DNA of 64,000 nt from an uncultured Acidobacteriota bacterium. GTDB taxonomy: Bacteria > Acidobacteriota > UBA6911. This document shows positions 12,284 to 51,868 of the stretch, piece by piece (positions within the stretch are counted from its first letter, which is position 1; every line of letters begins with the position of its first letter). A model generated the notes under the pieces. The model did not search any database and was not told where the DNA came from. It saw only the letters and a program-made list of their open reading frames with translations. A program made the position numbers and the translations under genes. Where the stretch lies: positions 544,001-608,000 of the forward strand of contig CAWEJX010000008.1 in assembly GCA_963809485.1 (NCBI GenBank), in the 5' to 3' direction.

Positions 12284-12450
12284 CCGGCTGAGGCACCTGG
12301 AGCCAATCTGCGAACCATGTGATTTGAGTCACAGCTGTTCCCAATATTCTGGATTAAAGTATTAGCTGGCGACAAGTGTATGGCTTTGCAGCTGATGAAT
12401 GGGTAATCATCTCACCGATTCTGTGGGCATTTGTAAAGGAACAGAGCGCG

Positions 12451-14316: not shown

Positions 14317-14399
14317 TCGGGGCGAGACTCCTACGGCGCATTCAGATGACGGAGATACCCGAAGATTCTCGGTACCGATATCCGCGATTCAGACACTGG

Positions 14400-14754: not shown

Positions 14755-15097
14755 AAGACGACACGGGAAGGCGTGTAAAATTGAAGAGGGAGCGCAGAAA
14801 GCGTGGTAAAGGGCAGCCCAGGGCGAAGGCCGTGAAGCGAGCCGAAGCCCCGAGGTAAGATGGCAGGAACTCAAGCCCTGTATAGATGGAGCACTGGTCT
14901 GTTTGGCCCATACAGGACTCACTTCTGAATTTGTCCGGGACCCAGGATTCCGGAGCATAGCGGCAGGCGCTCCTTCAAATCGGGTTGTCCTCTGCCGCAC
15001 TCCGGTGCTCGGTGAGAAATAATCAGCTCCGCATGCTCCAGAGCTGTGAAGACCGGCAGACTGCTCATGACACTGCCGATCCGAGGCGCATACGGGA

Positions 15098-16171
15098 TCA
15101 GGCGAGCGTATTCCTGATAATCGCCACGACCGGCGATGCGTAGTCGGACACGGGAGTCGCGGCAAAAATTTGCTTTTGCCGCGGCAAGTCCGCGAGAACT
15201 TCTCGGATCGAGTTCAGGAATGACTCAGGCTCTCCATTCGTGAACAGGACGCTGGGTTCGGGCCGCGGTGTGGCGTTGCTCGCAACGACCGGTACCCCGA
15301 GCCAGATTGCCTCGCGTATCGAGGAGCTGTCCCCTTCGCTGCGCGTCGGCCGCAAAAAGACATCCGTGTACTTCAGCATCGGCCAGAACACGTGCTGTTC
15401 CGATCGCAGGAAGACTGCATCAGCAGGTCCGGCGTTCTCGATACATTGCCGCAGGTTCCGGACCTTACCTGGATTGATCTCAGAGTCGTAGGTGCTCAGC
15501 ATCAGACCGACCCGAGGATACTGCTCCCGGATTCTAGGCAGCACCGAGAGCAGCAGGTCCAGACCGTACATGTTTCCACGTTCGCCCAGCCACAATTGGC
15601 CATTTGCGGCAAGTACCGGCGTGTGACTGCGGGCGAATTCAATTACCTCATCGGGCGGCTCTTCGCTCCTGTCTGCGGGGAGTATGAATCCGGGAATCAG
15701 ATGGACCTTTGCAGGATCGATCCCCTGTTGCACGATGGAGTCGGCAAGGTGGGGAGAAACAGGCATGATATATTCCGCGTTGCGTAGCGCAACCAGGGTC
15801 ATCCACCTGGCAAGCGAACGGCTCCGTTCGAAAGTGCGCAGGATATGTTCCTCGCCGATGCGGAGGATGTAGCGTTTACCCCTAAATACCTTCAGCAGGT
15901 AGGCAAGAAACCGGACGCCGGGCCGGCCGGTAAAGACGTAGAGGCTCCTTTCGGGAGCCCAGAGGGCGAACTTGATAAACCACAGTATCTGGTTTCGGCG
16001 AATGGATACAGCACGCGGCGGATCCTGCCCATCGCTGACACGGTTGTACACCCGCGCCCTTATGCCCTCCTGCTGCAGACAATCCAACAGGCGAACGATA
16101 TGAGTAGCCATTCCCCCATAGGGCGGTGGGTAGATACCCCAGATTGCCACATCCCAGGAACGCTTGCTCAT
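15098..16171 (-). CDS. Glycosyltransferase family 4
   Basis: GIYPPPYGGMATH, DVFLRPTRSEGDSSSIREAIWLGVPVVAS. Confidence 0.88.
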   Translation of the reverse strand: MSKRSWDVAIWGIYPPPYGGMATHIVRLLDCLQQEGIRARVYNRVSDGQDPPRAVSIRRNQILWFIKFALWAPERSLYVFTGRPGVRFLAYLLKVFRGKRYILRIGEEHILRTFERSRSLARWMTLVALRNAEYIMPVSPHLADSIVQQGIDPAKVHLIPGFILPADRSEEPPDEVIEFARSHTPVLAANGQLWLGERGNMYGLDLLLSVLPRIREQYPRVGLMLSTYDSEINPGKVRNLRQCIENAGPADAVFLRSEQHVFWPMLKYTDVFLRPTRSEGDSSSIREAIWLGVPVVASNATPRPEPSVLFTNGEPESFLNSIREVLADLPRQKQIFAATPVSDYASPVVAIIRNTLA

Positions 16172-18003: not shown

Positions 18004-19170
18004 TCACCCCTCCCGGTCGCGAAGGTCTGGCAGGTTTGCGCTGATGACGACGAGCCCCAGAACAAGCCAGGTGCATTTCCTGAACTCCCAGGTCAATACC
18101 GAGGCGCCGATGAACCAGATCGCGAGAACGGCAAGCCAGAGTTGCGACAGCACCTTCGGTTGAACAGCTGCCTGGCGCAGGACAATTGTCAGGACGCAGG
18201 CAAAAATCAGAAAGCCGGGCAGACCGAGTTCTGCGCTCACGGACAGGAGTGTGTTGTGGGGAACGGGGCCGATGCCAGCAGGAGGATGGAGAACTCCGCT
18301 GCCGACGCCTAAAACCGGATGTTCGGCAAACAATTGCAGCGTCTGAATCCATATCGCGCCGCGACCCCCAAGATCCAAGGAGGCTACCGAATGATGCGTA
18401 GTAGACAGCCGCTTGATCACAGACTCGGGTATGTATGGCACCGCGAGAATGCCTGCTGTCAGCAGAAAAAAGAGATACAGCACGCGCGAGGACAACCGGT
18501 TTTTGCTGCTCGCCCATACCAGGTAAACCACGAAAGGAAAGATGGTGAACAGAAATGTACGACTCCCTGTCAGCGTCATCCCAAAGATGGCGGCAGGTAT
18601 GTAAACGTAGTTCAAAATCCTGAGAACTCGATTTCTGATGCCCGTTCCCGACGAGGTCGCCAGGTGCCATGCGAACGGAAGCCCGATAGCCAGAACGAGA
18701 ACGAGATCTACTGCATTGATGTCTGCTCCGGCGTAGCGCCCCCCCGAGTATTCGGATATTTCGATGCCCGCACTGTAGTTGTATATTGTGGCCCCGATAG
18801 CCACGTACGCGCCGAGGATATAGGCCTGCAGTGCAGCTGCCAGCGCTTTGGGACCCGTGCAGAGGTCCCAGAGAATCCACATGAACAGGGCAAGCTGGGC
18901 ATACGTCTTGACGTGCTGGATCGTCTGATCAACCGCCAGAGACCAGAACAGACTGGCTGCATTCCACAAGACGAAACAAAATATCGCAAAATGGAAGGCG
19001 CGAAGCCTGCGCAGTGACAGTCTGCTCAGCAGGGAAAATGACCAGACGGCTGCCGTCAGGATCCCAAGAATCCTCGACATGGTCCCCCATTCGCCGATTG
19101 TGACGGCATTCTCCCAGGGAACGGTGAATATCACAAGCAACGACAAGACGAATGCCAGTTTTCGCATCAC
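18004..19170 (-). CDS. O-antigen ligase/polymerase (Wzy_C) family membrane protein
   Basis: Multiple TM segments, LTGSRT, GGRGAIW..HPVLGVGSG, PHNTLLSVSAELGLPG. Confidence 0.88.
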   Translation of the reverse strand: MMRKLAFVLSLLVIFTVPWENAVTIGEWGTMSRILGILTAAVWSFSLLSRLSLRRLRAFHFAIFCFVLWNAASLFWSLAVDQTIQHVKTYAQLALFMWILWDLCTGPKALAAALQAYILGAYVAIGATIYNYSAGIEISEYSGGRYAGADINAVDLVLVLAIGLPFAWHLATSSGTGIRNRVLRILNYVYIPAAIFGMTLTGSRTFLFTIFPFVVYLVWASSKNRLSSRVLYLFFLLTAGILAVPYIPESVIKRLSTTHHSVASLDLGGRGAIWIQTLQLFAEHPVLGVGSGVLHPPAGIGPVPHNTLLSVSAELGLPGFLIFACVLTIVLRQAAVQPKVLSQLWLAVLAIWFIGASVLTWEFRKCTWLVLGLVVISANLPDLRDREG

Positions 19171-19299
19171 ATCAAACCTACTATTATCTCCGCCACCGGG
19201 ACTTTCGGCGTCTCGCCGCCCGGGAGCAGGACCCGACTGGGAGCGCCGGCGTCCCGCCGGCCGTTACGAAGGGGCGCTGGCTGATCGCAAAGGAATTGC

Positions 19300-20147: not shown

Positions 20148-21809
20148 TTATTTTAAACGAATTGGCAAGATTGCTTTAAACCGACGAAGGACATCTGTTT
20201 TCTGCTTCCCGGACAGGCCGATGAAAAAAGCAAGGGCAAGAGCGGTGCAGAGTGTCGGTCCGGCCGCAACTATCAAGGCAGCCCACGCGACTGGTGAATG
20301 CCATTCCCCAGTCGTGAGAATACTGTCAACGAGGGATGCTGCAGCAAAAAGAGCCGCTGTGGTCATGGCAGGACGGATGATTGACTTTATCTGCGACATC
20401 ATCTCGATATGTAGCATGCGGCCGATCAAAAATGGGTATTGCATACTGAGAATCGCTCGACCTAAAATAAGCCCAAGACAGATTCCAATAATGCCCATCT
20501 TGAAGAAATGAACAAGGATTCCGGCGGCTATCAGGGACAATGAGACGGATATCGCTCCAATACTCACCTTTCGGGCAAGGTTGAGTGTTAGATCAATGAC
20601 GTTCGCGTCATTACGAATAAACACAAACTGCGCAACCACCAGGACTATAAAAAGGTTTGGACCGGTACCGACCCAGTGATTTCCTCCGACCCACAAGGTA
20701 ACGAAGGTTCGATTCCAAAGTAGCATTCCTGTCCCCAAGGCTGTAACAATCAGCCATGTGAAGGTCATGATTTCGCCGCGTACTCTGGCCGCCCTCTCCA
20801 AATCGCCGGAACCAATGATTCCTCCAAGCCCGGGCAGGATTCCAAAAACCATGATGGCTACAAGGGCAATTGCGGTTTCCGGGCCATATTTTGCGAGAGT
20901 GTAATTGGTGACAGACTCTACAGAATTCAGCAGAGCCAGCACGACTACGTCCGATGCGATCATCAGGTTCATGATAAGGTTCCATGCAAGGAACCACCAG
21001 CTCAGACCGAAAAATTCCCGAAGTGCGGTCCTTTTGGGTTTCTCAATACCGAACCATGGCGCATAGGTCTTCACGATCTTCAGGTAAAAAAGGCCTGACA
21101 AAATGGATGAAGCCAGAGTTGCAGCGGCTACGCCGACAATGCCTGCCTTGAAATATAATGCCAGCCAAACCAATCCCCCACCCAGCAAAACGAGGAAAGC
21201 TGAAACGCCCATGCGCTTATATCCCTTGTTTTCTCCCTCCAAGACGGATTGTGGCACGCTGACAAGGCTGCTTGTAATCAGGGCCGCGACAAGAAGTGCA
21301 CATGCGACACGGATAGGCATAAAAGATTCAGCAGGCGTCTTAATCCAATAAGGTACAAACCAGACTAGCAGCCCTCCAAGCAGGGACAAAATCGGCAAAA
21401 AGAAGCTGAATACTATCAGCGTGCTACCTACAAATGAGCGCTTTAGATTATAGTCGTCGGAATTTTGCACTTGTGCGAGGGCGAACTTCAACGTCTGGGT
21501 CGGGCGCCCGCTTGCAGGAGTAATATAGCCGGTCAGGCGATTAAGTACCTGCCAGGCGCCGAAATAGAAGTCACCCAGGCCAAACACCATAAGTGGTGTT
21601 ACAAGAAATGCTACGGTGATTCTGGCTGCATAATCCAGGACAGAAGCTAATGCATTCAAGGAAGCTTTATTGGTGAGACTGCTCTCGGGAAAAAGGCGGG
21701 GAATTTTATCTGGCGCATGCACGGATTTCAGATTTATTACCTTGGCGAACATGAGAGCCTCGATGATGTGAGGATCAGATTGCGAAATCTCGGTCTTTCC
21801 TTTTGGCAA
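20148..21809 (-). CDS. Oligosaccharide flippase (Wzx/MATE-like)
   Basis: ~12-14 TM helices, VTPLMVFGLGDFYFGAW; start uncertain (ATG 21752 possible). Confidence 0.82.
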   Translation of the reverse strand: MPKGKTEISQSDPHIIEALMFAKVINLKSVHAPDKIPRLFPESSLTNKASLNALASVLDYAARITVAFLVTPLMVFGLGDFYFGAWQVLNRLTGYITPASGRPTQTLKFALAQVQNSDDYNLKRSFVGSTLIVFSFFLPILSLLGGLLVWFVPYWIKTPAESFMPIRVACALLVAALITSSLVSVPQSVLEGENKGYKRMGVSAFLVLLGGGLVWLALYFKAGIVGVAAATLASSILSGLFYLKIVKTYAPWFGIEKPKRTALREFFGLSWWFLAWNLIMNLMIASDVVVLALLNSVESVTNYTLAKYGPETAIALVAIMVFGILPGLGGIIGSGDLERAARVRGEIMTFTWLIVTALGTGMLLWNRTFVTLWVGGNHWVGTGPNLFIVLVVAQFVFIRNDANVIDLTLNLARKVSIGAISVSLSLIAAGILVHFFKMGIIGICLGLILGRAILSMQYPFLIGRMLHIEMMSQIKSIIRPAMTTAALFAAASLVDSILTTGEWHSPVAWAALIVAAGPTLCTALALAFFIGLSGKQKTDVLRRFKAILPIRLK

Positions 21810-26668: not shown

Positions 26669-26967
26669 AGTTTTGGCAACAATAGGCTTTTCCGTGCCTA
26701 ATGAGTTTTGAGGGGGAAGTCATCCTCGCGAGCAACTAACACGAGATGGGGTATTAGTTTGAGCACTGCTAATATTTCGTGCTGAGGCGTAGTGCCAGTT
26801 TCAGTCGGCTTCTCGTTTGGGAAACAACGCATTGATATGCCGGAGCGTCAGCCAATTCATATATCATTTGCTCCTACCGGAAGCATCCACACACTGGGGT
26901 AGATTTAATACTCTACCTGTGAGCAGCAAAGGACAGGTACATTTGGAACGAAATGCCCATTTATATG

Positions 26968-28068
26968 TAACGTCACTAATAATTGCACATAAAAACGCCT
27001 TGTGATATTTTGGTATCATGAAACCAATAACGATGGAGGATGCCAAAGGCGCTATTTTATAACTGCAGAATGAGATCCGGCGGTCCAAGGAATCCCGATG
27101 TGATCACCGTCTGCACGGCGTTCTTTGGGTGGCTCAGCGAATGAGCTGCCGCCATGTATTGGAAATACTTGTCAATTCACTTTGAATTGTTGCTTACTGA
27201 GTGCAACGATTTGAACGCAAGGCACTAATCGGTTTGACTGAGGAAGAACGGCCTTAACGACATGGATATCTGTGCAAAGAACAGATACGCAGCATAAATG
27301 AGGCTTGGCGCAGGCAGCCTGTCGATTTTGGATTTGCGCGGAACCTGTAGGATGGCGAGATCCTTTCAATATACCCGAAACACGAATTGGATGTGCGCCT
27401 GGGCCTGCGACAATGCCAACGCATGTTCCGGTAGTTCATGTTCCGTTTTCGCAAGGCGAGGCCCCTAATCGCCAATGCCTGTCCTTAGAATCAGCGCCAG
27501 GTAACATTATATATATTTGCATATTTGCCGGTTGCCGAAAAGAGAAGACATCGATCTCTGGTCGATGGATGATTTCCACTCCCAGCAGCACGGTTCTTTA
27601 ATCCGGACGTGGGATTCCGCCGGAGACCAAAGACCCGGTGCGGCTACATCACCCGGCTCAGATGTGTGTCGGCTACTTTGGCCCTGTCCGGCTGCGAGAC
27701 GGCAAACTGGTATATAGGCCCTAGACCACTCGTTTTAATGCCGAGATTTGCTTTCATTTTCCTCGGCATCTCTGGAATATTAGTTCTCGTTCCGTCCGGA
27801 GAGTCATTGCGATTTCAAATAACGCGCGATGCCATGCAAGGACTGGAGGAGGGCAGCGGAACCTTGGTTTAGTCTCGAAAATCCTCCGCCGTATAGCCCA
27901 GAACTCAACGCGATTGATTGAGCATGGGAGTTGATTCTCCGCCTCGCAACACCCAATCAGTAATTTCCAGCGCTTGAGGGTGCATTCATGGATGTTGGCA
28001 CATATTCGAATTCTGACTCAATAGCAGTCATGCGTTTAGGGCATGATGCGCAATTATTTAGGACGTTA
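26968..28068 (+). mobile_element. Degenerate IS630-family element
   Basis: TA-bounded imperfect TIRs TAACGTCACTAATAATTGCACAT / ATGCGCAATTATTTAGGACGTTA; broken transposase from ATG 27018 with DLWSMDD and PPYSPELNAI motifs. Confidence 0.85.
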
Positions 28069-30870: not shown

Positions 30871-31803
30871 TCACAGTGGCTGCCCGATTTTGTCCAAACA
30901 ATCTGGCACCCGCTGTTTGTGGAGAGGGAGCTTGCCCTCCAGATAGAAACGAAGTATGCCTTCCGCTTTGGCAAAACGATAGTTGGAATGATATTTTCGA
31001 TGCATTTCTTCTAGAATGCGGTGGGAAAATTTGTTTGCCAATGGCCGAAGATTAGAATGGAACACAACCCGCTGCCGGACGGGTTTTGCCGTGTAGCCCA
31101 TGCGAAACTTGAAATCATCCACACTTGGAGGCGCATCGAGCGACTGGATACCCAAAAAAACAATCGAAATTTCCGGATTTTTGAATGCTTCACGGGTTAT
31201 GGAATAAAATAGCGCGTTATTTGCACGAGATTCTAGATGGGCGGAAGAACTCTGCGCATAGGGTATAATATACGAATCATCGCACCTGAAACCCAGAACT
31301 GAGGCTATCAATTCGCCATGGCGAGTAGCTCCATAACACTCAAATCCTGGCAGATCCAGAGCGCTCATACATAAACGATCCCACCATTTCTGGGTTTCGG
31401 CGCCGGACCTGCCCTGGCGTGCCAAGGTATCCTGCCGAAGAGGCCAGCCTTCCTTGGCAAGTCTGGAAACTGGAATTTGTTCAATTTTGGCATAGGCAAG
31501 ACCTCTATTGATGTTTTGGCGGGCCTGGCGCGGAAGCGATGAGAGATCAAAACCGGGATCTTCACAGACCACGTGATAGCTCGCCATCCCTTCCGGAGCA
31601 TCCAGCATCACCGAGTATCTGAGGGCAATAGCACGGCTTCTCCGCAGCAGCTGTTCCAGTTCTTCCTCAGAAGGCTGGATCAGCCAGTGAAAGGGGAAGG
31701 CCTGGAAAACCCTCAGACCGGCATCGTACCAGTAGCTGCTTGCAGTATGAACCACCGCGTAGCCCTGCCGCCGGAACCATTCCGCCATAACCTCAGCATT
31801 CAT
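30871..31803 (-). CDS. GNAT/FemAB-like acyl- or aminoacyl-transferase
   Basis: RQARQNINRGL, ANNALFY, VDDFKFRMGY typical of Acetyltransf_6/FemAB-like proteins in EPS loci. Confidence 0.65.
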   Translation of the reverse strand: MNAEVMAEWFRRQGYAVVHTASSYWYDAGLRVFQAFPFHWLIQPSEEELEQLLRRSRAIALRYSVMLDAPEGMASYHVVCEDPGFDLSSLPRQARQNINRGLAYAKIEQIPVSRLAKEGWPLRQDTLARQGRSGAETQKWWDRLCMSALDLPGFECYGATRHGELIASVLGFRCDDSYIIPYAQSSSAHLESRANNALFYSITREAFKNPEISIVFLGIQSLDAPPSVDDFKFRMGYTAKPVRQRVVFHSNLRPLANKFSHRILEEMHRKYHSNYRFAKAEGILRFYLEGKLPLHKQRVPDCLDKIGQPL

Positions 31804-32237
31804 GAAAGCCTATTGTTCCAGAAAAGGGGTGAATACTCTCAGGATTTGGCTGGCTTCGTCGCCGCAGCTTTACCTACAAATCCAACTCGGACGCGTTTTC
31901 CAGTAATGAATCCGCACCTGTAGCGTGTGGCTTTGAAAAATGCCGCCCATAGGGGGGCCACCAAGTTTGTGCCAATTTGAGATATTGTCATGATAAATTC
32001 AGAGCAACCGATCGATGCTTCCTCATTTGCTGCGATGTTGCGGCACAACTCAAAGTGAGCGACAACAGCGGGCGGCCTCGGGCCATACCCATCCGGGACC
32101 GGCATAGCCAGTCCTCGTAACCCCACCCATAAGGCGGGGGCTTCTAATTCGCACTAAAACATTTTTGATCAATGTTTTGTTGAGAATATGCACATAATCA
32201 TGCGGCTTAAATGCTAAAGTTCCAATATCCTTAAAGA

Positions 32238-34233
32238 CTATCCGGCTTTGTTCGCATATTCCTCAAAACCGTATTCAACCAACGATGATAAATCCCGTTG
32301 ATCTGTCAAAGCCCGAATCCTGGTTTTCCCAGCCAATCGAAGCTCCTTTCCGAAAACCGGGATCGGCTCCGACATCAATTGATTGATTCTCTTTTTGATT
32401 GCTTTTGCTTTGTCTTCATCAGCGATATTTTCGAGGATCAGCACGAATTCACGCGAGTTGAAGCGACCCAATGTGTCGCTTTCCCGTTTAATTTTGATCA
32501 ACCGTCTGGCCAGGGATCTCATCAATTCATCCGTGGTTACCTGACCATAGACATCACGAAGACTGTCAAGGTCATGCAATTCTATGATAAGAACCGCTGA
32601 GTTTGTGTTATAGCGCCTTGAATAGGAAAGCGCGTGCTTCAAACGATCTCTGTAATAAGTAACCCTTCGGAAGTCCAGTAAGAGGATCGTACATCAACTG
32701 AGAGTGAATGTATTCCTGTAACGTCCCGGCAAACTCCGATGATTTTACCGGTTCATCCAGATGGGCCTTGACTATCCCAATAAGGTTGTCTAGAAACATC
32801 AGCCGGACACGCGAGGTTTTGCAGAGGTCGAAGAGAATATCTCTGGCCTTGGAATCGGCATTTGAGACAGCGCACATAATCAGGCCTACATCATAGCGTT
32901 GAACCAATCCGGGAAGGTCGCTGATCCCACCCCGCACCCAGCAACCGTTTATTCGCATGCCCTGGTTTTTCGGATCGTCCGTGGAAACCATTCCAACAAT
33001 GGTAAAGATATGGCGGAACATTCTGCGCCTGAGCAGCCAGTTTGCCATCTGGCAACCTTCACCGCCGCCTACGATCAGCACCCTTTCGCCGATCCCCTTC
33101 ATATTACCTCGACGGGTTAGCCAGAATTCGGAAATGCCCATCAGGATTCTCAGGTGGTACCGGGTGCACAAAAAGCCGATCTGAGCCAATAGTCCTATTG
33201 TGACGATTAAAACGGGCGGCAAAGCAGGATATGGCAATATCTCGTAGAGATACTGCAAATGGTTAAGCATTAATACCCAAAAGGCCACAAATCCGCTTGA
33301 AACCAGCAAGCCGAAGGCGTCCGCCGCCGTTGCCTCAGCCCATAAAATCCTGTTAAAACCTGCAAGCGAATTGACGCCGCCAAACAGCAGAGCCAGTAAC
33401 AAAACCAAGCCCAGGAGCGGGATGGGGCCCCAATCAAAGGGTCCCTGGGTACGCCACAATAGCGCGGAGCTAACCGCGGCTGTGAACAATGTTAGAAAAT
33501 CGATTAAGAACCAGGACACATATCTATGAACGAAACGGGAAAGCGGACCAAAAAGCAGAAGCGTTTCTGGAATACCTGCTTCCGAAATGGGTGGGATGAA
33601 AAGCGCCAGGGTCAGGAAAATTACGTCCAAATCTGTTGAAAACGATCGATTGCGGACATAAAGGCGGTCAAGACGTATCTTATTAGGCAAGATGTCATTG
33701 AAATACATCCTCATAAGTTCAATCTTGGAGAGAAGATTTTCTTCGCTGTGATAGAAAACACTCGCCGGACTCGTAACGCCCGGCCTGACAGAGAGAATTT
33801 CTTCACGCGCATCTTCAGGCCAACCCATCATCAATTCCGGATCCTCGGGGCGAGGGCCTACCATGCTCATATCGCCGACCAACACATTCCATAGTTGCGG
33901 CAATTCATTCAGCTTCGTTCTACGAAGCCAGCGTCCCAGCGCCGTAATACGGTCATCTTCCGAAGACGTCAACCGAGGCCCATCATAGCTTTCCGGACTA
34001 TCATACATTGTCCGGAATTTAAGAATCTGAAATACTCGCCCATTGCGACCCACACGCGGTCCACGATAAAAAACCGGGCCCGGAGAATCCCGTTTGATAA
34101 CGATCCAAGCTATAAAGAAAAGAGGCGAAAGAAGGATCAGACCGATGATAGAGGACACAATGTCAAAGGCGCGTTTAGTTACGAGGCTCCAGCGGTCCAA
34201 CAAAGATGGAGCGTTTGCCTGGACCGGATGCAC
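32238..34233 (-). CDS. Priming phosphoglycosyl transferase (Bac_transf) + TM/CoA-binding domain + degenerate GGDEF domain (1-nt frameshift at ~32650)
   Basis: KRAFDI..KFRTM..KLNELPQLWNVLVGDMSMVGPRPE..RPGVT; RVLIVGGGEG; YDPLTGLP|DRLKHAL..RESDTLGRFNSREFVLIL. Confidence 0.85.
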
Positions 34234-35473
34234 GATTCTTCAGCAATTCTGAAAGATAACGGAAGCTGATCATTTCTATATAGCCGCTTGGATTTCTTCG
34301 GTTTTTTGAGAAGGCTACAGTGACCGCTATGATTTCAAGGCTCGAAGAGCCTGATGTGAGGCTTTCCACTACATAATTAACATGGTCTTCGGTCATTGCA
34401 GGATAAAGAGGCAGCGTAAGCAAACTATATTTGAGGCTTTCCGTTACAGGAAGGTTATATGGTGTTGCAGAAACATATGCGGTAAATGTATGAATGGGCC
34501 TATAGTGGACGCTTGACTGAATACCATTCTCTCTCAGCGATGATGCAATCGTGCTCCTGTCGGCCCCTTCAGGAAGAACAATCGGGAAAATATGGCAGGC
34601 AGAAACTGAAGATTCACCGGCATTTTTGAACGGCACTACAATACTCGAATCTTGATATAAAAGTGCCCGATATTTCTCAACGATTTTCATGCGGGCGATG
34701 TTTTTGCCCCCAAGCCTTTTGAGCTGCACCCTGCCCATAGCCGCGTTGATTTCGCCGGATCGATAATTGAATCCCTTCTCCATCACATCATAGGACATGG
34801 AATGCCCTTTGTGTCTATCCAATGTATTGGTGGTCATCCCATGGGATCGCAGCAATTTTATTCTTTGGGCAAGATCATCCCGGTTGGTGACGACCATTCC
34901 GCCTTCGCCGGTGGAGAGGTTTTTGTTCGAGAAAAAGCTGAAGCAGCCGACGTCCCCGAATGTGCCGGTCATTTTGCCTTTTAGAGAGGCTCCTGGAGAG
35001 TGTGCGCAGTCTTCAACCACATATAAATGATTTTCCCCGGCAATCTTCATTATCTCATCCATGAGGCAAGGGTATCCGGCATAGTGCATCACCGCTATTC
35101 CTTTGGTCCGCGGACTTATCTTTCGGGAAATATCCTCCGGAGATATGGTCAAAGTCTCTTTCGAAATTATATCTGCTAAAACAGGTGAAGCGCCGGTTTG
35201 GGCAATTGCGCTGGCTGTAGCGACAAAGGTCAAAGAAGGACAAATCACCTCATCCCCGGGGCCCGCCCCGAGAACATGATGAGCCAGGTGCAGCGCCGCT
35301 GTGCAACTGGATACCATAAAGGCATATTTCACGTTGAGAAAGTTCGCAAATTCCCTCTCGAAGGCGTTGATTTCCTCGCCCATGGTAAGCCAACCGGACT
35401 TGAGAACACGCAGCACGGCGTCCTGCTCGTCCTGACCAAAATCGGTGTCAAAAAGTGGGACTTTCCAATTCAT
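34175..35473 (-). CDS. DegT/DnrJ/EryC1/StrS sugar aminotransferase
   Basis: SSCTAALHLA, PSLTFVATA, EDCAH, FSFFSNKNLSTGEGG, LTLPLYP. Confidence 0.93.
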   Translation of the reverse strand: MNWKVPLFDTDFGQDEQDAVLRVLKSGWLTMGEEINAFEREFANFLNVKYAFMVSSCTAALHLAHHVLGAGPGDEVICPSLTFVATASAIAQTGASPVLADIISKETLTISPEDISRKISPRTKGIAVMHYAGYPCLMDEIMKIAGENHLYVVEDCAHSPGASLKGKMTGTFGDVGCFSFFSNKNLSTGEGGMVVTNRDDLAQRIKLLRSHGMTTNTLDRHKGHSMSYDVMEKGFNYRSGEINAAMGRVQLKRLGGKNIARMKIVEKYRALLYQDSSIVVPFKNAGESSVSACHIFPIVLPEGADRSTIASSLRENGIQSSVHYRPIHTFTAYVSATPYNLPVTESLKYSLLTLPLYPAMTEDHVNYVVESLTSGSSSLEIIAVTVAFSKNRRNPSGYIEMISFRYLSELLKNRASGPGKRSIFVGPLEPRN

Positions 35474-35482
35474 TCCGCATGC

Positions 35483-36187
35483 CTATTGCAAAAAGTGATC
35501 TCTCTTCTGATCAAATTCATTGATCGCGCGTTCGTAGTCGTCGTTGCGGCCTATATCAAGCCAGTAACCGTCGAAAGGATAGGATGCTACCTTCTCCCCA
35601 TTCTTAATCAGAACTCGTACGAGGTCCGGAAAATCGAAATAGGTATCAGGCTTTATGAACTGCAAAACCTGGGGCGAAAATACGTAAATGCCCATGCTGA
35701 CCCGATATTTAAATGATGGCTTTTCGATGTAATCGGCCAGCAGGTTGGATCCGTTAGTTTCAATTACGCCGAAGTCAATATTGACAGTGCGCTGGTAAGT
35801 AGCAATTGTTGCCACTGCCTGCTGTTTCATATGGAAGCTATAGAGGTCGGCGTATCGCAAGTCTGTCAGGATATCCCCATTCATTACGAGGAACGGTTCA
35901 TCGAGGCCCTTGACCAGCGCGAGAGGACCGGCGGTCCCCAGCGGCTTGCTTTCCACGGAATAATTGATCCGAATACCGAGCTTGCTTCCGTTGTTAAAAT
36001 AGGCCCGCAGGAGTTCCGCGAGATGGCCAACCGCAAGCGTAACTTCATCACAGCCGGAGGATTTAAGCTGATGCAGAATCACCTCCAGGATGGGCATATC
36101 GCCGACAGGCATAAGCGGCTTTGGGAATACGGTTGTGTAAGGTGCCAACCTTCTTCCCTTTCCGCCTGCGAGAATGATGGCTTTCAT
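35483..36187 (-). CDS. Sugar-phosphate nucleotidyltransferase
   Basis: MKAIILAGGKGRRLAPYTTVFPKPLMPV, PLGTAGPL, VMNGD, YWLDIG. Confidence 0.93.
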   Translation of the reverse strand: MKAIILAGGKGRRLAPYTTVFPKPLMPVGDMPILEVILHQLKSSGCDEVTLAVGHLAELLRAYFNNGSKLGIRINYSVESKPLGTAGPLALVKGLDEPFLVMNGDILTDLRYADLYSFHMKQQAVATIATYQRTVNIDFGVIETNGSNLLADYIEKPSFKYRVSMGIYVFSPQVLQFIKPDTYFDFPDLVRVLIKNGEKVASYPFDGYWLDIGRNDDYERAINEFDQKRDHFLQ

Positions 36188-36441: not shown

Positions 36442-37203
36442 CTAAATTCTGCGATAGAGGGCTGGGGGAATGGGATATGTACGTTTATTCAGGACGGCGC
36501 CAAAAAGCTTGATATTGGCTGCCTCGATATCATCTTTGGCTTTACGGGCTGTATCCCGGCGCGTGGAATGCGCCTCAAGCACCAGAACCATTCCATCCGA
36601 CAATTGCCCCAAAAATAGAGAATCCAAAGACCTGCTTATGGGCGGTGCGTCGACCAGGATAAAAGCAAACTCCGAACGCAATTCCGTAAGACGAATCTTC
36701 AGACGGTCGCGATTCATTACACTCGCACCGTTGCTCGGCAATGCACTCCCCGACATAAGCCATAAATTGCTATTGTGGATTGCCTGCACGAAGTTGTGAA
36801 CGGGACCCTCCTGTAAGATGGCATTCGCAAGCCCGCTTCCTCCATTTACACCAAAATATTGATGAAGCATTGGAGATTGCAGATTGGCATCAACAAGGCA
36901 GACTCTTCCCTCACCAAGAGCAGCCAGCGCTTCTCCGGCCCGAGCGCAAATCCAGCTGCAGCCGTTGCCCTGCTCGACCGCAGAGAAGACTACCATCTGT
37001 GGGGCGCCCTGAACATTTGCAAGGAATACCCGCTGAACAAGCTGAAGGATTTCCTCCCGGACGTGGTCACCGCGACGGAGATGTCCATTTCCCCTGATTA
37101 CGGCGGGATGGCTCTTTTTTTCTCCCGTACTGGCCAAAAGATCCGTGCGGAAAAGCTCCAGGTCCTTTTCTGCACTGCGAAGAAGCTCATAATTTTTGCT
37201 CAC
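36442..37203 (-). CDS. CpsD/CapB-family BY-kinase-like protein with degenerate Walker A
   Basis: SAVEQGNGCS (Lys missing), CLVDANLQSP, ILVDAPP, GAVLNK; no Tyr cluster. Confidence 0.85.
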   Translation of the reverse strand: MSKNYELLRSAEKDLELFRTDLLASTGEKKSHPAVIRGNGHLRRGDHVREEILQLVQRVFLANVQGAPQMVVFSAVEQGNGCSWICARAGEALAALGEGRVCLVDANLQSPMLHQYFGVNGGSGLANAILQEGPVHNFVQAIHNSNLWLMSGSALPSNGASVMNRDRLKIRLTELRSEFAFILVDAPPISRSLDSLFLGQLSDGMVLVLEAHSTRRDTARKAKDDIEAANIKLFGAVLNKRTYPIPPALYRRI

Positions 37204-38551: not shown

Positions 38552-40156
38552 TCAATTACGCGGCAAAGAGGCAATCACAGGGACTGCCAGAACATGTTCA
38601 ACCTCACCCGGCGTCCTGAAGGTCGGGTCAATGTAATCGGCAGCGATTGCCAGTCCTATGCTCGTCAAAAGCGCAAGAGTAAAGCCCAGAGTCAGATTCA
38701 AAGGCCAATTGGGGCCGGTCGGCATGGCCGGAACCGTCGCAGCCTCGACCATCGCGACATTGACAATATGCTTGCGATCCAGTGCATCCGATATGCGTGC
38801 TTCCTCCTGCTTGCGCAAATATAAGAGATAGTTCTCTTCGGCGGTTTTAGCTTGCCGTTCAAGGTCGGTGAGCGGAATCTCCCTGCTGCTGATCTGACGT
38901 GCGCTCCTGCGATAGGAATCCAGGCTCATTTGAATCTGTGTTTCACGCGCACCAAGCGCTGCCCTTTCAGCCCGTGCCTTGGCTAGTTCTTCGTCCAGCC
39001 ATTGGCGTGTCCTATCGAGGTCCGTAGATTCCTCACGAATGGGATTTTTCTCGGCCTTGTCCAAAGCATCACGAGCCTGGGAGATCTGTCCATCAATTTC
39101 CTTCACCGTACGGTATTCGGGATCATATTTGGTGAGCAGATCCGCGCGCTTCATCTCAAGATCCAGCAGCTTGGATCTGATTTGCTGAAGTAAGCTGGAA
39201 TTGTCCATAGTTCGCACCTGTGTGACAATCCGCTCGGGAGTCGCCGCTGCCTGTGCCTCCAGCAATTTGATGCGCTGCTCAAGCGCTGCTCGAGCCGCTT
39301 GCGTTTCGCGCAGCTGCGACTCCGTGTCGCTAAGCTTTCGCAGCGTTATATCCTTTTCAATCTCCACTGAGACAACACCTTCGCTCCTGTTGAACTCGGC
39401 CAGATGCTTTTCGGCTGCCGCAAGCCCCTTTTTGTACTGTTCTGTTTGCTGCTCGAAAAAGTCCAGGGTGCCCGGCGGGCGGTGTACAGCCAGATGCTTC
39501 TCCAGGTAAAGCTCCGAAAGCGTCTGCAGGACCCTGGCAGTCAACTTTGGATCCTGCGAAGCATAATTGACCTGTATCATCTTTGATTTTTCTATGGGCC
39601 AGGCGATCAGGTTCTTTTCCAGCGCGAGCACAGCATTGGGGATTTGGGAATCCGGACTGGATTCCGCCTTTTCGCCAAGTGGCAAGTATTTTAGAATACG
39701 GCTTAGGAAGGATTCGTTTTTATGCAGATGCAATCCGCAAGAAACAACCACCTTTTCGAGAAGGTCCCGGCTTCTCAGCAATTCGACCTCTGAGTTGAGA
39801 TCCTCAAGCGTAACATCCCTGACGACAAGCGATTGAACATTCGAAGAAGGGGTCACAACAGGATCGACTCGTTCCCGCTTGATCAGGATCTTCATGCTGG
39901 TTTCATACTTTGTTGGCAGCATCCATGTCCCAAGAATTACGCCAAGGAATATTGCCAGAAAGGATGATACGAGCAGAGTCTTGTGCCGGAAAATTACACC
40001 AATGATGTCGCGCAACGTCGAGAACCTAATCCGATCGGCTGCCGGGGCCAGTGAAATAGATTCCTCACCCAGCCTTTTCAAAGCTTCAGCGTGCTCGGAG
40101 ACTGCCGGAGGACGCGCCGCACTTGGGATTGTAACATTTGAAGTTGGTTCTTCCAT
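38552..40156 (-). CDS. Polysaccharide co-polymerase / chain-length determinant (GumC/Wzz)
   Basis: Two TM segments, NSEVELLRSRDLLEKVV, coiled coils, YDPEYR, DPTFRTPGEVEHVLAVPVIASLP. Confidence 0.9.
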   Translation of the reverse strand: MEEPTSNVTIPSAARPPAVSEHAEALKRLGEESISLAPAADRIRFSTLRDIIGVIFRHKTLLVSSFLAIFLGVILGTWMLPTKYETSMKILIKRERVDPVVTPSSNVQSLVVRDVTLEDLNSEVELLRSRDLLEKVVVSCGLHLHKNESFLSRILKYLPLGEKAESSPDSQIPNAVLALEKNLIAWPIEKSKMIQVNYASQDPKLTARVLQTLSELYLEKHLAVHRPPGTLDFFEQQTEQYKKGLAAAEKHLAEFNRSEGVVSVEIEKDITLRKLSDTESQLRETQAARAALEQRIKLLEAQAAATPERIVTQVRTMDNSSLLQQIRSKLLDLEMKRADLLTKYDPEYRTVKEIDGQISQARDALDKAEKNPIREESTDLDRTRQWLDEELAKARAERAALGARETQIQMSLDSYRRSARQISSREIPLTDLERQAKTAEENYLLYLRKQEEARISDALDRKHIVNVAMVEAATVPAMPTGPNWPLNLTLGFTLALLTSIGLAIAADYIDPTFRTPGEVEHVLAVPVIASLPRN

Positions 40157-40171: not shown

Positions 40172-40888
40172 CTACCAGGGAGTATAGACGCCGATAGACG
40201 TTTTGGGTATGAAGTCCTTGATTTTGGACAATGTATTTTTGGGAACATATATCATATCGCCAGGACGCAGATGAAGATCCTCGCTCAGATCCGCAGTGGC
40301 AAGCATCTCTTTCATATCCAATTTTTTGACCGAGACCCACTGATCCGATATCTGACGGAAAAGCAGCACCTGCGAATGCTTGGCTTTCTCGTTAATCCCG
40401 CCCGCTATCCCGATCGCTTGCAGGACCGTTGTGTCTCCCCGAAGCTCGTATTTTCCGGGCTTTCCCAGTTCTCCCTGGGCAATGAAATATGGCTTCTCAA
40501 ATTCCTTCAACACAACATCTATGACCGGGTCTTTGAGGATGCCGGAATATTTTTTTTGCAGCATTTGCGCTAATTCGGGAGTCGTCTTTCCGGCAACATG
40601 TAAATCCGCCAGTTCGCGAAGGCTAATGTAACCGTCAGGCTGTATCGTTAGGATTTGATTGAATTCCGGCGTAAATCGAAAATTAATTTCAATTATATCC
40701 CCCACACGAAGCAAGTAACGTGGATTGGGAGTTTGCAGCACGGGTTCATTGGCTCGCTTTGTCGCCTGTTCGATGGTGTTTGGGTCAACGCCTGATTCCG
40801 AAATCGGCTTTTGCTGGAAACCCGCCGCTGAAGTTGCCAGGACCAGCATCAGGACAATTGCCGGAATTGAGATGTGTCGAAAAAACAT
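40172..40888 (-). CDS. wza: Polysaccharide export protein (Poly_export + SLBB)
   Basis: YLLRVGDII, IQPDGYISL..GKT, GELGKPGKY, LRPGDMIYVP. Confidence 0.88.
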   Translation of the reverse strand: MFFRHISIPAIVLMLVLATSAAGFQQKPISESGVDPNTIEQATKRANEPVLQTPNPRYLLRVGDIIEINFRFTPEFNQILTIQPDGYISLRELADLHVAGKTTPELAQMLQKKYSGILKDPVIDVVLKEFEKPYFIAQGELGKPGKYELRGDTTVLQAIGIAGGINEKAKHSQVLLFRQISDQWVSVKKLDMKEMLATADLSEDLHLRPGDMIYVPKNTLSKIKDFIPKTSIGVYTPW

Positions 40889-43700: not shown

Positions 43701-44900
43701 ATTATGTGAAGGAGAGCAGTCGGAACCCGCGATAACGCCGCAAAGTTTTTGGCTTTTCCTTCACATAATCTTGCCGGATTTACAGCGATTCGAGCCAAGC
43801 TAGCAACTCAGCATCCCGTTTCCATCGGGGAGGTTTTGCCGGGCGCATTGCTGTATCGAGTTGATCAAGGGCTTTGCGCTTTGTTTCCAGATTGGCCTGA
43901 GCATAGATATTTGTTGTGTCCAGGTGCGCATGCCCGAGCCAACTGCTGATCACTGTGATGTCAACGCCCGCAGCCAATAGGTGGACGGCAGCGGCATGGC
44001 GCAAATTATGCGTGGGCCGATACGGCCGGCAACGGGCTTGAGCCCAGCCCGGCGAAGCACCTTGACGAGAAGTACTGCTAAAGGCCCTTGTGAGTAACCG
44101 CGGCGTCCCCTTTCGTGCCAAAAGAGAGAAGCATCCGAATGGTCTGGGGCACCGGAACAGCTGCGAGCGTCGAGGTATTCACGCAAAACCGCTATGACAC
44201 TGGGTTGGAGTGGCAAGCGGCGGTATTTGAAGAACTTCGTCTCGCGGATGTCGATTGTTTCCTCTCGGAGATCGACATCGCCGACGGTCAAACGAACAAT
44301 CTCGCCAAATCTCAAGCCCACACAATAGGCAAGAACCACCACGGTGTAGAGGGTGAGAGGCCGTAATGGGGCATGTGGTGACGGAAAACGGCGGGCCGTG
44401 ACCATCACCCGTTTTAGAATGGCGCACTCGTATGCATTCGCCTCGCCAATCCAAGTCATCCAGGCTTAAAGCGACTAATTCCCCCGCGCGCAATCCGTAC
44501 GTGGACAAGACCATCAGAATCGCATAGTCGCGTCGGCCAAGAGGAGTGTGGTCCTTTTTAGCAGTTTCCAGGATCGCCGTCACCTCCCAGCTCTGAAAAG
44601 CTGACGGAATGCCCTCGAACGCATACAACGACGGGCTTTTGACAGCATGGGAGAGGTCATGTTTCATCAGCCCTTCTCTGTGGGGAAGGCACGGCACATT
44701 GGGATGGAGGAATCCGCCGGAGATCCTCCTTGCAGAAAGTGCCGTAAAGGCCTGGCTTTTTTGCGAATGTGGATCCGCTCGCACAGAGTGGCCCAAACTG
44801 CCTTAAAGCATGAGATTGCGGGGCGAATGGTAAGTCCTGCTTCGGCAAACAGACGTTCGATATGAATCCTTGCTCGGTATGGTCGACTGCGCTGTGACAC
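43701..44900 (-). mobile_element. Collapsed RIT (recombinases-in-trio) element: fragments of three tyrosine recombinases
   Basis: GRRDYAILMVLSTYGLRAGE; LAYCVGLRFGE..IRETKFFKYRRLPL; HNLRHAAAVHLLAAGVDITVISSWLGHAHLDTTNIYA; terminal IR ATTATGTGAAGGA/TCCTTCACATAAT (43701-43769). Confidence 0.85.
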
Positions 44901-45608: not shown

Positions 45609-46345
45609 GTCGCGGTAGGAACCGCCCTTGCGAGCGGCCCCCCCGCACAGATTCGTACGGGCGCGGCTAGCGTATACGGCTCTTACCTTGGTTAAAGACG
45701 GCGAAGCACTGTTCAGGCCAAGGGTGAAGAATACAGGCGGGAGGCAGCCAAGCTTCTGCGAGTTCCTTCATACGATCCCATGTGAGACGGCTCTTCTGGC
45801 TGAGACGGCGCAGGGTCTTGTACCACAGCCGCGTGCATTGAATTCGGAAGGAACCCAGTGCGGCCCAGTTGCCCGTGATGGCATGGTAGGCAAAATACCC
45901 CCGGATCACCGAAATGAGCCAGTCACGCTGCTCGACAATGGGTTGATGCATCCGCTCGCGAAGTTCCGCTTTCACCGCATGCAGCTTTGCGGTTAGGCGC
46001 TTCTTCTGTGTAATGCGACCGACCATAAATTTTCCCTTGAGATTCACACCACAATCAATGTGTGAACCCAAGAAAGTTAAAGGTTTCGGGTTTGCTCCTT
46101 TCGTCGAAGCGATTACAATCCCGGCGCGCAAATCGGCCGAAACGGATCAATCGAGTCTTCTCGGGATGGAACTCCAGCGAAAACTTTTGCAGTCTGTCTC
46201 GCAGAGCCTCCTTGAATCGTGATGCCTCATCCTCGTATTGAAAGCCCATAACAAAATCATCGGCCCAGCGAACGATGGTCACATCGCCTCGTGCATGGCG
46301 TCGCCTCCACTGCTGCACCCAAAGGTCGCGCACATATCTTCCAAA
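45609..46345 (-). mobile_element. 5'-truncated group II intron: RT/maturase C-terminal half (broken) + domains V/VI
   Basis: IVRWADDFVMGF, HPEKTRLIRFG, FNFLGFTH, RGYFAYHA, ILHPWP; DV/DVI GAGCCGTATACGCTAG..GTACG..GGGCGGTTCCTACCGCGAC ending 45609. Confidence 0.9.
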
Positions 46346-46447
46346 GTGTCTCAAAAGGTCTGATATTCCTGCAGCGCAAGGCAGAAGCAAGGCTGCCCTT
46401 ATCTCTTTTGGAGGGCATGTTTAGTTCCGTGTTGGTTTGCAGTGTGT

Positions 46448-49560: not shown

Positions 49561-50829
49561 TTACTAGGCGGATCTTTCCGGCAATGCTGGCAGTATCTGA
49601 TCAGCGACAGTTATTTTTTTCGAACCCATAAAAATGGCTGACGCTAGACAAGGATCACCAAAAGCAGCGATTAAGGCCTGCCTCCCGCAGTATAGCAAGA
49701 CTATTTCGACTAAACGACCCTCACCTGGAAGGTGAGGGGTTTGTAAAATGTCGGCTTGAAGCCGACTGAAGCACCAGCGGCCAAAGGCAACAATCATTTT
49801 GCGATTCCAAAATTGCTCAATCAGTAGTCTCGATAATCAAAAGCTTTGCTCGTCGACATTCGTCGACTTCGCAATCCTTTTCTTCGCCTGAAGGCGAGGG
49901 ATTTCAACCATCCCCGATGGGGACCACTAATAGGATACCCTTTAATCAAGCATCCGGTTGAAAAAAGGGGATCTCTGCAAAATTCCAGGTTTCTTGCATC
50001 GATCTGACCCATATGGTAGTAAAATTGCCGCCTGAGAATCAAGAATAGTTTATGTAAAACCACTGCTGTCCCAACGTTTGCGAGGGCGGAAGTCGGGCTA
50101 AGCTGATCGGTTAGCCGGAAGGGCGATCACTTCTTTGTTACGTTCACAACGACGTCGTCACTCGCCGAGAACTAGCCGTCGGAGGCCGTCAATCGACGAG
50201 TATAGATCCCGGTCTCTGAAAACTTTGCCGTAATAGAGAGAAGGCGCGCATTGCCAAAAGTGGCGCATCCCGGGCCACTGACCTTGCGACCGTTTCCCCG
50301 CCTTGAATTCGTACAGGCGGTGAAATAACACCGCTCCGACTACGCTTCCAAAGGATTTACGAGCTGGGGCCAGTTTGTCGCCATGCTCTTCCGTCAGTTT
50401 GGCCGGGCTCACAGCCTGCGGGAGATCTGCGGAGGACTGCCCAGTTCCGAGAGCAAGCCTAAGCACTTGGGCGTTCCCGTTTCCCCGAAACGCTCCACTC
50501 TCGCATATGCCAATGCCAACGGTCCCTGGTCGCTCTACCAGACCGTGTTTGAGCAACTCCTGGCAAAATGTCAGCTGAGTGTGGCAGGCCGCCGCACAGG
50601 AAAAAAGCTCCGGTTCAGGAACAAGCTTGTGAGTCTGGATTCCAGCGTCATCAATCTGTCCCTTTCCTTGTTCGACTGGGCTCAGTTCCGAAGGACCAAG
50701 GGCGCCGTCAAGCTCCACCTACTCCTGCTCCTGGACCATGATTGCTACCTGCCTTTGTTCGCCGTGGTTACCAACGGAAAGACCAGTGATATCAAGGCGG
50801 CTCGGAGGCTCGGATTTGAACGAGGCACA

Positions 50830-51711
50830 ACTAATGTAGCCTTCATGATGATCCTGAATCAAGACTGTCCAGTCTTCCTGTCGAGGCCTTTTCGAGCGTA
50901 CTGCCCGTTTACGGCCATCTTCGATGCGTATCGTTGTTTTGCTCTGGCCATAGGCATACACACCCGCGTACAGGGGATTTCTCAACAGGCTCAGAAGGCT
51001 ATGGTAGCGTGGTGGCTTCCACACGATCGGCAGCGGACTTCCGGCGCTGGCAATGACTGGCACTTTTATTTGCTGATTACAGAGCCAGAAATACAACTGT
51101 CGCACGCTGCCTAACTCGGTAAACTTTCGAAAGAGAATCTCAATCGAGGCACGGATGCGTTCATCGGGATCCTTCTCAACCCGGTCATCGGAGGTCCGTA
51201 CATAGCTGATGGGCACTCGTCGAAACAATTCGCCTCGCATGGCCTTTTGCGCGAGAGCAGCGTGCGCCCTCTGGCGGAAGGTTGCAAGTTCCATCTCGCT
51301 GATGGTGCCCTTCATTCCCAACAAAAGTCTGTCGTTGATTTCTGCGGGATCGTAGACGCCGTCGGCGTCGATCAACAGCGCGCCAACAACGCTGCAGAAC
51401 TCCAACAGCGTGTGCCAATCGCGGCCATTGCGCGCCAAACGTGAAGCTTCTATGCTAAATACCGCGCCGACCACTCCCTCGCAAAGAGCTCGTAGTAAAC
51501 GCTCGAAACCCGGACGGCGCGTGCCTGAGCCCGAGATTCCCAAGTCGTCGTCAATGACCGTGATGTCCTTCCAACCCAGTACCCGGGCATGCTCGGCCAA
51601 GGCATATTGACGGCGCTGGCTTTCCAGGTTGTTCTGAACTTGATCCGCTGTGGACTGGCGAATATATATGCAAGCCATACGGGACAGATGCTCAGCGCTG
51701 ATCTTTGTCAT
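50830..51711 (-). pseudogene. Large serine recombinase, C-terminally truncated
   Basis: MTKISAEHLSRMACIYIRQST..DDDLGISGSG..RPGFERL..EASRLARN..NPLYAG..HHEGYIS then junction to IS4 antisense. Confidence 0.88.
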
Positions 51712-51868
51712 TTTTCGCCTCCGCATCGATGGTTTTCGCCAGAGCCTGCATCCACTCTGTCAGCAGGAACATTACCGCGCGTTTTTCCTCCTCCTGGAGC
51801 GAGGGGAGAGGAATCCGGACGCACTCTTCGAATAACGTCCTTTGTTGTCTCGCTCGTCGCGTCATCAT
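51692..51868 (-). CDS. Small accessory ORF of serine-recombinase element
   Basis: GGAGG RBS; ..QQRTLFE..LLTEWM.. overlapping recombinase start. Confidence 0.5.
   Translation of the reverse strand: MMTRRARQQRTLFEECVRIPLPSLQEEEKRAVMFLLTEWMQALAKTIDAEAKNDKDQR

Follow-up and report, generated by a model that had tools for sequence, protein, structure and literature searches.

In Pseudomonas aeruginosa the membrane-anchored protein PelD carries a dead GGDEF domain with an RxxD motif, and its binding of cyclic di-GMP (c-di-GMP) gates polysaccharide production. PssE of Listeria and the putative YdaK of Bacillus are further degenerate-GGDEF receptors, and loss of the catalytic site with retention of the allosteric site (I-site) is the signature of the known I-site receptors. 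Here we describe a gene from an uncultured Acidobacteriota bacterium, located on the minus strand of a 64-kilobase (kb) stretch of contig CAWEJX010000008.1 (hereafter the window, all 64,000 nucleotides of it), which joins a domain of this kind to a protein resembling phosphoglycosyl transferases (PGTs). Like PelD, PssE and YdaK, the window protein has a membrane anchor and a dead GGDEF domain with RxxD, whereas those three are separate receptor subunits of synthase-dependent systems and here the domain is fused to the PGT-like protein, in a cluster of likely Wzx/Wzy type. The window protein is not a PelD, which has a GAF domain; Pfam scans found neither GAF in the window family nor pel genes.

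WbaP of Salmonella, a large monotopic PGT (monoPGT), resembles the window family in combining a Bac_transf domain with a four-helix transmembrane (TM) bundle and a CoA_binding_3-like domain of unknown function (DUF), to which a nucleotide-sensing, regulatory and dimerising role has been assigned in work on WbaP-type proteins (PMC10312794; PMC10942596). The order is reversed in the window protein, where the catalytic domain precedes the four TM helices and the DUF, so that it does not have the layout of the large monoPGTs. Where WbaP has an Asp-Glu dyad, the motif PGxTGxWQ and no GGDEF domain, the window protein has Asn-Glu, PGxTSPAS and an added GGDEF domain. PGTs fused to a PglF/CapD-like dehydratase share the same core in the same order and are the nearest relatives with Asp-Glu; most of these fusions keep that dyad, whereas in the window family the dehydratase domain is lost and GGDEF stands in its place.

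The holdfast of Caulobacter crescentus is made by a Wzx/Wzy-type pathway. There c-di-GMP binds directly to HfsJ, an early cytoplasmic glycosyltransferase crucial for holdfast (PMC9980756), but HfsJ is a soluble glycolipid glycosyltransferase rather than a PGT and has no GGDEF or PilZ domain. In the EpsW-EpsZ pair of Myxococcus xanthus, a receiver protein post-translationally activates the initiating PGT of a Wzx/Wzy pathway (PMC12802240). P0140, a relative of the window protein, has a receiver domain fused to the PGT-like core, whereas EpsW is a protein apart from EpsZ and signals through phosphorylation rather than c-di-GMP. BcsA-type synthases are activated directly by c-di-GMP through a fused PilZ domain (PMC12220298), and a sister subfamily of the window family similarly carries PilZ, at the N-terminus of the PGT-like core, although BcsA is a processive GT2 synthase with a translocon and not a lipid-carrier-priming enzyme. 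Fusions of monoPGTs to regulatory domains, receivers included, were reported by O'Toole et al. (2021), as related in PMC12802240. Our literature searches found no published characterisation of a PGT-GGDEF or PGT-PilZ fusion, although the O'Toole et al. (2021) survey may list such fusions, and the terms GGDEF, diguanylate and c-di-GMP do not occur in PMC11626204. An earlier account of this DNA, made from its letters only (the sequence-only reading), had not recognised the architecture as characterised, and in this it agrees with the searches; its further suggestion, that c-di-GMP may directly control the initiating step, is less novel than it had implied, since HfsJ is a precedent for direct control at an early step of a Wzx/Wzy-type pathway (PMC9980756).

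A dead GGDEF domain on a transferase core

The window protein is spread over a Bac_transf open reading frame (ORF) and a GGDEF ORF (Table 1) which, judged against intact relatives, are one gene split by a one-base insertion. The 541-aa Bac_transf ORF ends in YDPLTGLPKGYLLQRSFEARAFLFKAL and a stop, and the GGDEF ORF matches its Pfam profile from position 20 onward, so that only the first ~19 positions are lacking; these are found as YDPLTGLPKGYLLQ in the other frame. The frame of the GGDEF remainder is open from 32693. The closest homologue, P0001, is continuous over 677 aa, 90% identical to the window protein, and reads GLPKGYLLQDRLKHAL across the break. By tblastn, its residues 18-541 align in frame -2 (34221-32650, 89.5% identity) and its residues 541-677 in frame -3 (32651-32241, 78.8% identity), with a shared ...KAG end before the stop. 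Removal of one base at 32649-32651, as the sequence-only reading had proposed, yields LLQDRLKHAL, a letter-for-letter match to the intact homologue. Homologues of the split protein reach E = 0, far beyond chance.

Homologue searches show that the PGT-GGDEF fusion is a real family, widespread in Chloroflexi. Among the 120 best homologues, 108 are at least 600 aa long and carry both PF02397 and PF00990, with the anatomy Bac_transf, four TM helices, CoA_binding_3-like fold and GGDEF; the sequence-only reading had put forward Bac_transf with CoA_binding_3 and GGDEF as the combination to search for. Source names include 'diguanylate cyclase (GGDEF)-like protein', 'sugar transferase', Chloroflexi and Anaerolineae. 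The order of transferase, TM segments and YDPLTGLP that it had read in the window protein stands, but its CoA_binding_3 segment gave no Pfam match in the window ORF at E <= 0.1. This domain (PF13727) is weak in P0001 (E 0.071), clear in P0019 (E 7.7e-6) and significant at several loci. The other 12 of the 120 comprise the window's own truncated gene call and 11 natural short forms of 513-544 aa that lack GGDEF. The short homologues of ~515-545 aa were considered as frameshift artefacts and this was ruled out, as they end before any GGDEF sequence.

The origin of the middle region is shown by a profile search of 1.84 billion representatives, with Pfam run on 41 of the best 150. In 25 of these 41 the architecture is Bac_transf, four TM helices, CoA_binding_3 and Polysacc_synt_2, a PGT fused to a PglF-like dehydratase, so that the middle part of the window protein is the N-terminal half of such a dehydratase; a weak dehydratase match persists in the Asn-Glu members P0256, P0276 and L028. 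A C-terminal GGDEF sits on the same core in 7 of the 41, one of which (P0134, 1021 aa) has an extra N-terminal GT2 domain, and P0275 carries a GT4 domain. A FastTree phylogeny was built from the window and 130 of the 268 eligible core sequences, 131 in all. On this tree the presence of GGDEF needs two changes and that of PilZ three, and the window belongs to a well-supported group whose 32 members all carry GGDEF.

The GGDEF fold is recognised by sequence in both the window piece and P0001 (PF00990, E 3.4e-18 in the latter), and a homologue search restricted to the GGDEF part gave nine matches. The sequence-only reading held that the active site is dead and the I-site intact, and both statements were borne out across the family. 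In the alignment of the 108 full-length members none has GG[DE]EF. The first metal-binding Asp, by alignment to the Thermotoga cyclase 4urg_A, is Glu in the window, and its column varies freely (E26/D25/R16/G10). An active diguanylate cyclase was ruled out on the loss of the motif and the metal ligand. The I-site reads RESD-TLGRF-NSREF in the window, with five residues between the motifs, a spacing kept in all 108 members, and RxxD itself is present in 99. Within the surrounding K-R-E-S-D-T-L-A-R block, R is kept in 100 of the 108, S in 98, D in 107, T in 102 and L in 106. An Arg 32 residues after the I-site Arg is a candidate third I-site residue and may be the equivalent of PleD R390; R, D and this Arg occur together in 96 of the 108. 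Among 23 GGDEF-bearing representatives at 50% identity, fragments included, 21 have RxxD and none a canonical active site.

A second c-di-GMP-binding module occurs on the same Asn-Glu transferase core. P0157 begins with a PilZ domain (PF07238, 26 bits against a cut-off of 22.5), and in a set made of P0157 and its 20 closest full-length relatives (P0277-P0296, chosen from 120 listed) the motifs RxxxR (residues ~5-9) and [DN]xSxxG (~32-37) are found in 18 of 21 sequences, the three exceptions being truncated at the N-terminus. P0140, one of the 41, has a C-terminal receiver domain (E 1e-22) on the shared core. With two unrelated c-di-GMP-binding modules and a receiver on one core, the core can be argued to be a regulated node, and the PilZ subfamily provides independent comparative support for a c-di-GMP input.

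The asparagine-glutamate transferase domain

The sequence-only reading called the protein a priming glycosyltransferase. The family assignment is secure, the PF02397 match scoring 188.8 bits against a cut-off of 27; with the match confined to the catalytic half, TIGR03025 reaches 250.7 bits and stays short of the 295.55 set for the full length. The best PDB match of the domain is WbaP (8t53_A, E 6.3e-25). An N-terminal hydrophobic helix, IVSSIIGLILLSPLFFIAWIVI, putatively re-entrant and with a Ser-Pro kink (LSPLF, 34117-34131, minus strand), is present; the hydropathy peak is 2.51 (P0001 residues 34-61). The functional name is less safe. WbaP LDELPQLFNVL aligns with LNELPQLWNVL of the window, and Asn replaces the nucleophilic Asp of the Asp-Glu dyad in all 119 motif-containing relatives, for which reason we do not adopt the term "priming transferase". 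In monoPGTs the dyad Asp attacks the sugar-linked phosphate, forms the covalent intermediate and is a Mg ligand (PMC10541605).

The Asn-Glu (N-E) state defines a clade. Among the genome-scan matches listed, 51 are Asp-Glu (D-E), as generic PGTs are, and 18 are N-E, namely all 16 family loci together with L028 and L043; the tree of 131 core sequences requires a single change between N and D. The remainder of the domain is well preserved. The core motifs KFRTM, DxRxT and PRP are all present in the window, and KFRTM, DxR, R117, K120, E123 and PRPE are kept at >=96% in 247 N-E sequences, as they are in the 18 nearest D-E relatives. Only two positions discriminate strictly between the groups, position 122 (N/D) and Asp216. 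The latter (P0001 numbering; window 33616-33636, minus strand) follows, at a distance of two residues, the Asp that is universally conserved in the C-terminal Bac_transf motif, and is invariant in the 247 N-E sequences and K, V, N or G in the 18 D-E relatives. Asp216 may be a compensating carboxylate. The transferase domain is thus under strong constraint yet cannot use the textbook mechanism, so that the N-E domain would either transfer without a covalent intermediate or serve as a binding module only.

Frame breaks and gene neighbourhood

The coordinates of the gene, its motifs and its frame breaks are collected in Table 1.

Table 1. Features of the split transferase-GGDEF gene and the adjoining DegT gene, in window positions.
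Feature	Positions	Strand	Basis or remark
DegT aminotransferase ORF	34175..35473	-	432 aa; Pfam domain stops at residue 372
Probable one-base insertion no. 3	about 34366-34368	-	GGAAAGCC, in DegT ORF
First 14 codons, MISFRYLSELLKNR	34232..34273	-	ATG 34273; frame of the upstream DegT ORF
One-base insertion no. 1 (+1 frame change)	34222..34231	-	within CATCCGGTCC; extra base at about 34222-34228
Bac_transf ORF	32608..34233	-	541 aa; frame -2; ORF list
Bac_transf (monotopic phosphoglycosyl transferase) domain	33604..34176	-	Pfam PF02397, ORF residues 20-210, E 8.3e-56
NELPQ, Asn-Glu at the catalytic Asp-Glu dyad position	33895..33909	-	alignment to WbaP
Four predicted transmembrane helices	33163..33522	-	Kyte-Doolittle scan of P0001
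Rossmann-like, CoA_binding_3-like region (VLIVGGGEG...)	32692..33081	-	PF13727 significant in relatives
GGDEF domain start, YDPLTGLP	32668..32691	-	frame -2; family consensus hDxxTGLPNR
One-base insertion no. 2 (+1 frame change)	32649..32651	-	within CAGAGATC; tblastn frame switch 32650/32651
Rest of degenerate GGDEF, C-terminal tail and stop	32238..32648	-	frame -3; Pfam PF00990
GGDEF ORF	32238..32642	-	frame -3; Pfam GGDEF profile positions 20-131/161, E 2.1e-15
RESD, RxxD allosteric (I-site) motif	32475..32486	-	aligns to RRSD of 4urg_A
NSREF at the GG[DE]EF position	32445..32459	-	aligns to GGDEF of 4urg_A
Arg 32 residues after the I-site Arg, candidate third I-site residue	32388..32390	-	R in 97/108

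The sequence-only reading implied a single frame break and a repaired protein of ~664 aa, and on both points it has to be amended, as a second frameshift near the gene start had been missed and the true start lies upstream of it. The window start MISFRYLSELLKNR matches the N-termini of P0001 (MIIFRYLSEQLKHR) and P0003 (MINFHKLSEYWDNR), and the frame -2 alignment of P0001 begins only at residue 18 (34221). Dropping one base at insertion no. 1 gives KNRASVQANAPSLL, equal in length to KHRSTDQTNAPSLL of P0001; with both insertions ignored the window gene has 677 codons, the same as P0001. A third insertion probably lies in the neighbouring DegT gene, whose last ~60 codons look out of frame and contain no stop. 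If one A of GGAAAGCC is skipped, the +1 frame reads ASHQALRALKS and then a stop, a short match to the C-termini of homologues, which in related loci end in ...VVEAARKSLDG or similar, followed by a stop, at 380-400 aa.

There are thus three one-base insertions within 1.72 kb and no deletions, and two of the three lie within short homopolymer runs. The correct frames of the window gene contain no premature stop. Of the columns conserved at >=95% across the family, the window copy retains 114 of 118, and four intact controls retain 113/119, 113/119, 117/119 and 114/118. The GGDEF part is 55.0% identical to that of the outgroup P0003, compared with 54.2% for P0001. Neutral decay of the GGDEF ORF, which the sequence-only reading had raised, was accordingly not seen. 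Assembly or base-calling error probably explains the frame breaks better than a very young pseudogene, given that all events are insertions, that homopolymer runs are involved, and that there is neither an excess of conserved-residue loss nor of divergence. An appreciable minority chance remains with the second explanation, under which the frameshifts are true mutations of a recently inactivated gene and the family function is lost in this organism: two frameshifts fall in one 2-kb gene with the probable third 140 bases upstream, while some 20 neighbouring genes of 300-600 aa are intact, and such clustering is as would arise under relaxed selection. Other window genes are broken as well (an integrase at 43783-44802 in three frames, a reverse-transcriptase fragment at 46058-46420 and an IS630-like remnant), but these are mobile-element remnants. 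A natural split, into two genes or through programmed +1 frameshifting, has very little to recommend it. Both ORFs are open and the second has a TTG at 32642, yet it lacks the first ~19 domain positions that are present directly upstream in the other frame, inspection by eye found no ribosome-binding or slippery sequence at CAG-AGA-TCG, 108 full-length relatives are continuous, one of them at 90% identity, and the natural short forms stop ahead of any GGDEF sequence.

Similar interruptions were noticed elsewhere. At L013:9923-11429 a homologue is likewise split into two overlapping frames, one with the transferase part and one with the middle part. In the window, 11814-12917 and 14392-15213 (minus strand) each hold a run of three overlapping ORF pieces in different frames that have no Pfam match and may be further frameshifted genes.

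On the strand of the split gene are Poly_export/SLBB (40175-40888), Wzz/GNVR (38555-40156), an AAA_22+LysM protein, a ParA/BcsQ-like ATPase (36445-37203), NTP_transferase and DegT genes, an acetyltransferase, three GT4 genes, a Polysacc_synt_2 enzyme, a weak Wzx-like match (20151-21809) and Wzy_C (18007-19263). The Wzx/Wzy cluster that the sequence-only reading had recognised is therefore likely, on the strength of Wzy_C, Wzz/GNVR, Poly_export and the many glycosyltransferases, while the flippase call is weak. Pfam scans of eight related loci likewise gave Wzy_C, glycosyltransferases and a Wzz-kinase. In four of the eight (L002, L004, L006 and L011) a 4,6-dehydratase, NTP_transferase and DegT lie beside the gene, and in L005 a dehydratase and DegT without NTP_transferase; in the window the NTP-transferase and DegT genes (34178-36187) adjoin it. 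These neighbours point to a 4-amino-4,6-dideoxyhexose as the first sugar. Pfam found a further Bac_transf or Glycos_transf_4 domain neither in the window nor in six of the eight loci, so that the context, a sole PGT candidate with sugar-precursor genes alongside, favours a working initiator.

GT2-Bac_transf fusions were observed at L005:19207-20805 and L010:17223-19436, 7-8 kb from the N-E gene; both are canonical fusions with D-E, and that of L010 has an added low-molecular-weight phosphotyrosine phosphatase domain. Remnants of mobile elements are scattered through the window. Between two GT4 genes lies a 1.3-kb interval without long ORFs (26720-28065), in which the plus strand at 27823-27921 reads ...PPYSPELNAID, presumably from a decayed IS630-type transposase. 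The phage-type integrase remnant (43783-44802) and the reverse-transcriptase fragment (46058-46420) are both on the minus strand, the former in three overlapping frames, and at 50329-51759 a DUF4372 transposase piece overlaps a serine recombinase on the other strand. An Rfam scan of the window gave no matches, and a promoter/terminator scan of 31700-32700 gave nothing above shuffles.

Competing readings and meaning for the family

We propose that the product of the locus belongs to an Anaerolineae-type family of Chloroflexota, whose members are inner-membrane proteins of ~690 aa. From the N-terminus these consist of a Bac_transf domain, four TM helices, a CoA_binding_3-like Rossmann domain in the cytoplasm and, at the C-terminal end, GGDEF; the TM helices and the Rossmann domain are what is left of the N-terminal portion of a PglF-type dehydratase. 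The GGDEF domain cannot make c-di-GMP; it has kept RxxD and is most likely a c-di-GMP receptor. Binding of c-di-GMP at RxxD, with the Arg at +32, would alter the position or pairing of the cytoplasmic domains and so tune the step at which a Wzx/Wzy-type exopolysaccharide pathway begins and lipid carrier is consumed; the NTP-transferase and DegT genes next door probably supply the first sugar. Since Asn stands where the nucleophilic Asp would be, the transferase domain, if it is an enzyme, must work without the usual covalent Asp intermediate. Of the mechanisms considered, the one with most support is a dead GGDEF domain that serves the initiating enzyme as its c-di-GMP receptor, and we put its chances at slightly better than even; both the binding and the effect on initiation are inferred, from conservation and from convergent domain fusions.

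Several points weigh against this reading. RxxD is absent from 9 of the 108 relatives and 2 of the 23 representatives, and GGDEF tails were seen in only one of the 16 family loci (L001) among the genome-contig scan matches listed, although the patterns of that scan represent the transferase domain and give no census of the GGDEF fusion. Neither a cyclase, a phosphodiesterase nor a c-di-GMP riboswitch was found in the window by Pfam and Rfam, the Wzx candidate (20151-21809) scores 20.4 bits for Polysacc_synt, below the cut-off of 28.2, and the window copy is out of frame twice. The invariant Asn conflicts with the accepted covalent mechanism and may leave no transferase activity to regulate. 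A GT2-Bac_transf fusion is, moreover, also present at L005 and L010, which counts against a working initiator.

The last two points bear on a different account, in which the Bac_transf domain only binds nucleotide-sugar and/or polyprenyl phosphate and the protein as a whole, a sensor or scaffold responsive to c-di-GMP, would control either a different initiating enzyme or the machinery of export. In its favour are the N-E dyad of all 119 motif-containing relatives and the single N/D change on the tree, at a position where the Asp carboxylate of monoPGTs is both nucleophile and Mg ligand (PMC10541605), and the GT2-Bac_transf fusion with D-E that two of the eight loci hold within 10 kb. We nevertheless consider it doubtful, as pseudoenzymes usually lose the other core residues that the 247 N-E sequences keep, and as the gene is the sole PGT candidate in the window and six of the eight loci, standing beside sugar-precursor genes like true initiators. 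Less probable still is that the degenerate GGDEF domain binds no nucleotide and was kept for dimerisation or docking. Many degenerate GGDEF domains do have protein-protein roles (PMC5635695), and the Pfam match, which stops at profile position 131-155 of 161, covers the final third of the domain poorly; against this, the K-R-E-S-D-T-L-A-R block and RxxD are kept while the former active-site residues drift freely, and PilZ takes the equivalent regulatory place in the sister subfamily. Returning to the receptor reading, a broader version is tentative at best: that one Chloroflexota PGT lineage has twice independently wired c-di-GMP into the first Wzx/Wzy step, through a dead GGDEF domain and through PilZ, with Asn at the nucleophile position. 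Its corollary, that this lineage either runs the reaction without a covalent intermediate or uses the transferase fold as a substrate-sensing switch, we hold with equal reserve.

Lipid carrier and nucleotide sugar, two substrates of the priming step, are in short supply, and several glycoconjugate pathways draw on them (PMC12802240). Post-translational control of Wzx/Wzy pathways is described as incompletely understood and c-di-GMP control as known for synthase systems (PMC12802240), and c-di-GMP control is treated as a hallmark of the latter in the accounts of PMC12802240 and PMC12220298. The label 'diguanylate cyclase (GGDEF)-like' that proteins of this family currently bear is a wrong annotation. 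With its invariant Asn, the family lets PGT enzymologists ask in a natural setting whether catalysis must proceed by the covalent ping-pong mechanism. If the receptor reading is true, a single compact protein, PGT and c-di-GMP receptor in one, would allow a test of whether c-di-GMP can gate initiation itself, and the natural PilZ version would be a second such system.

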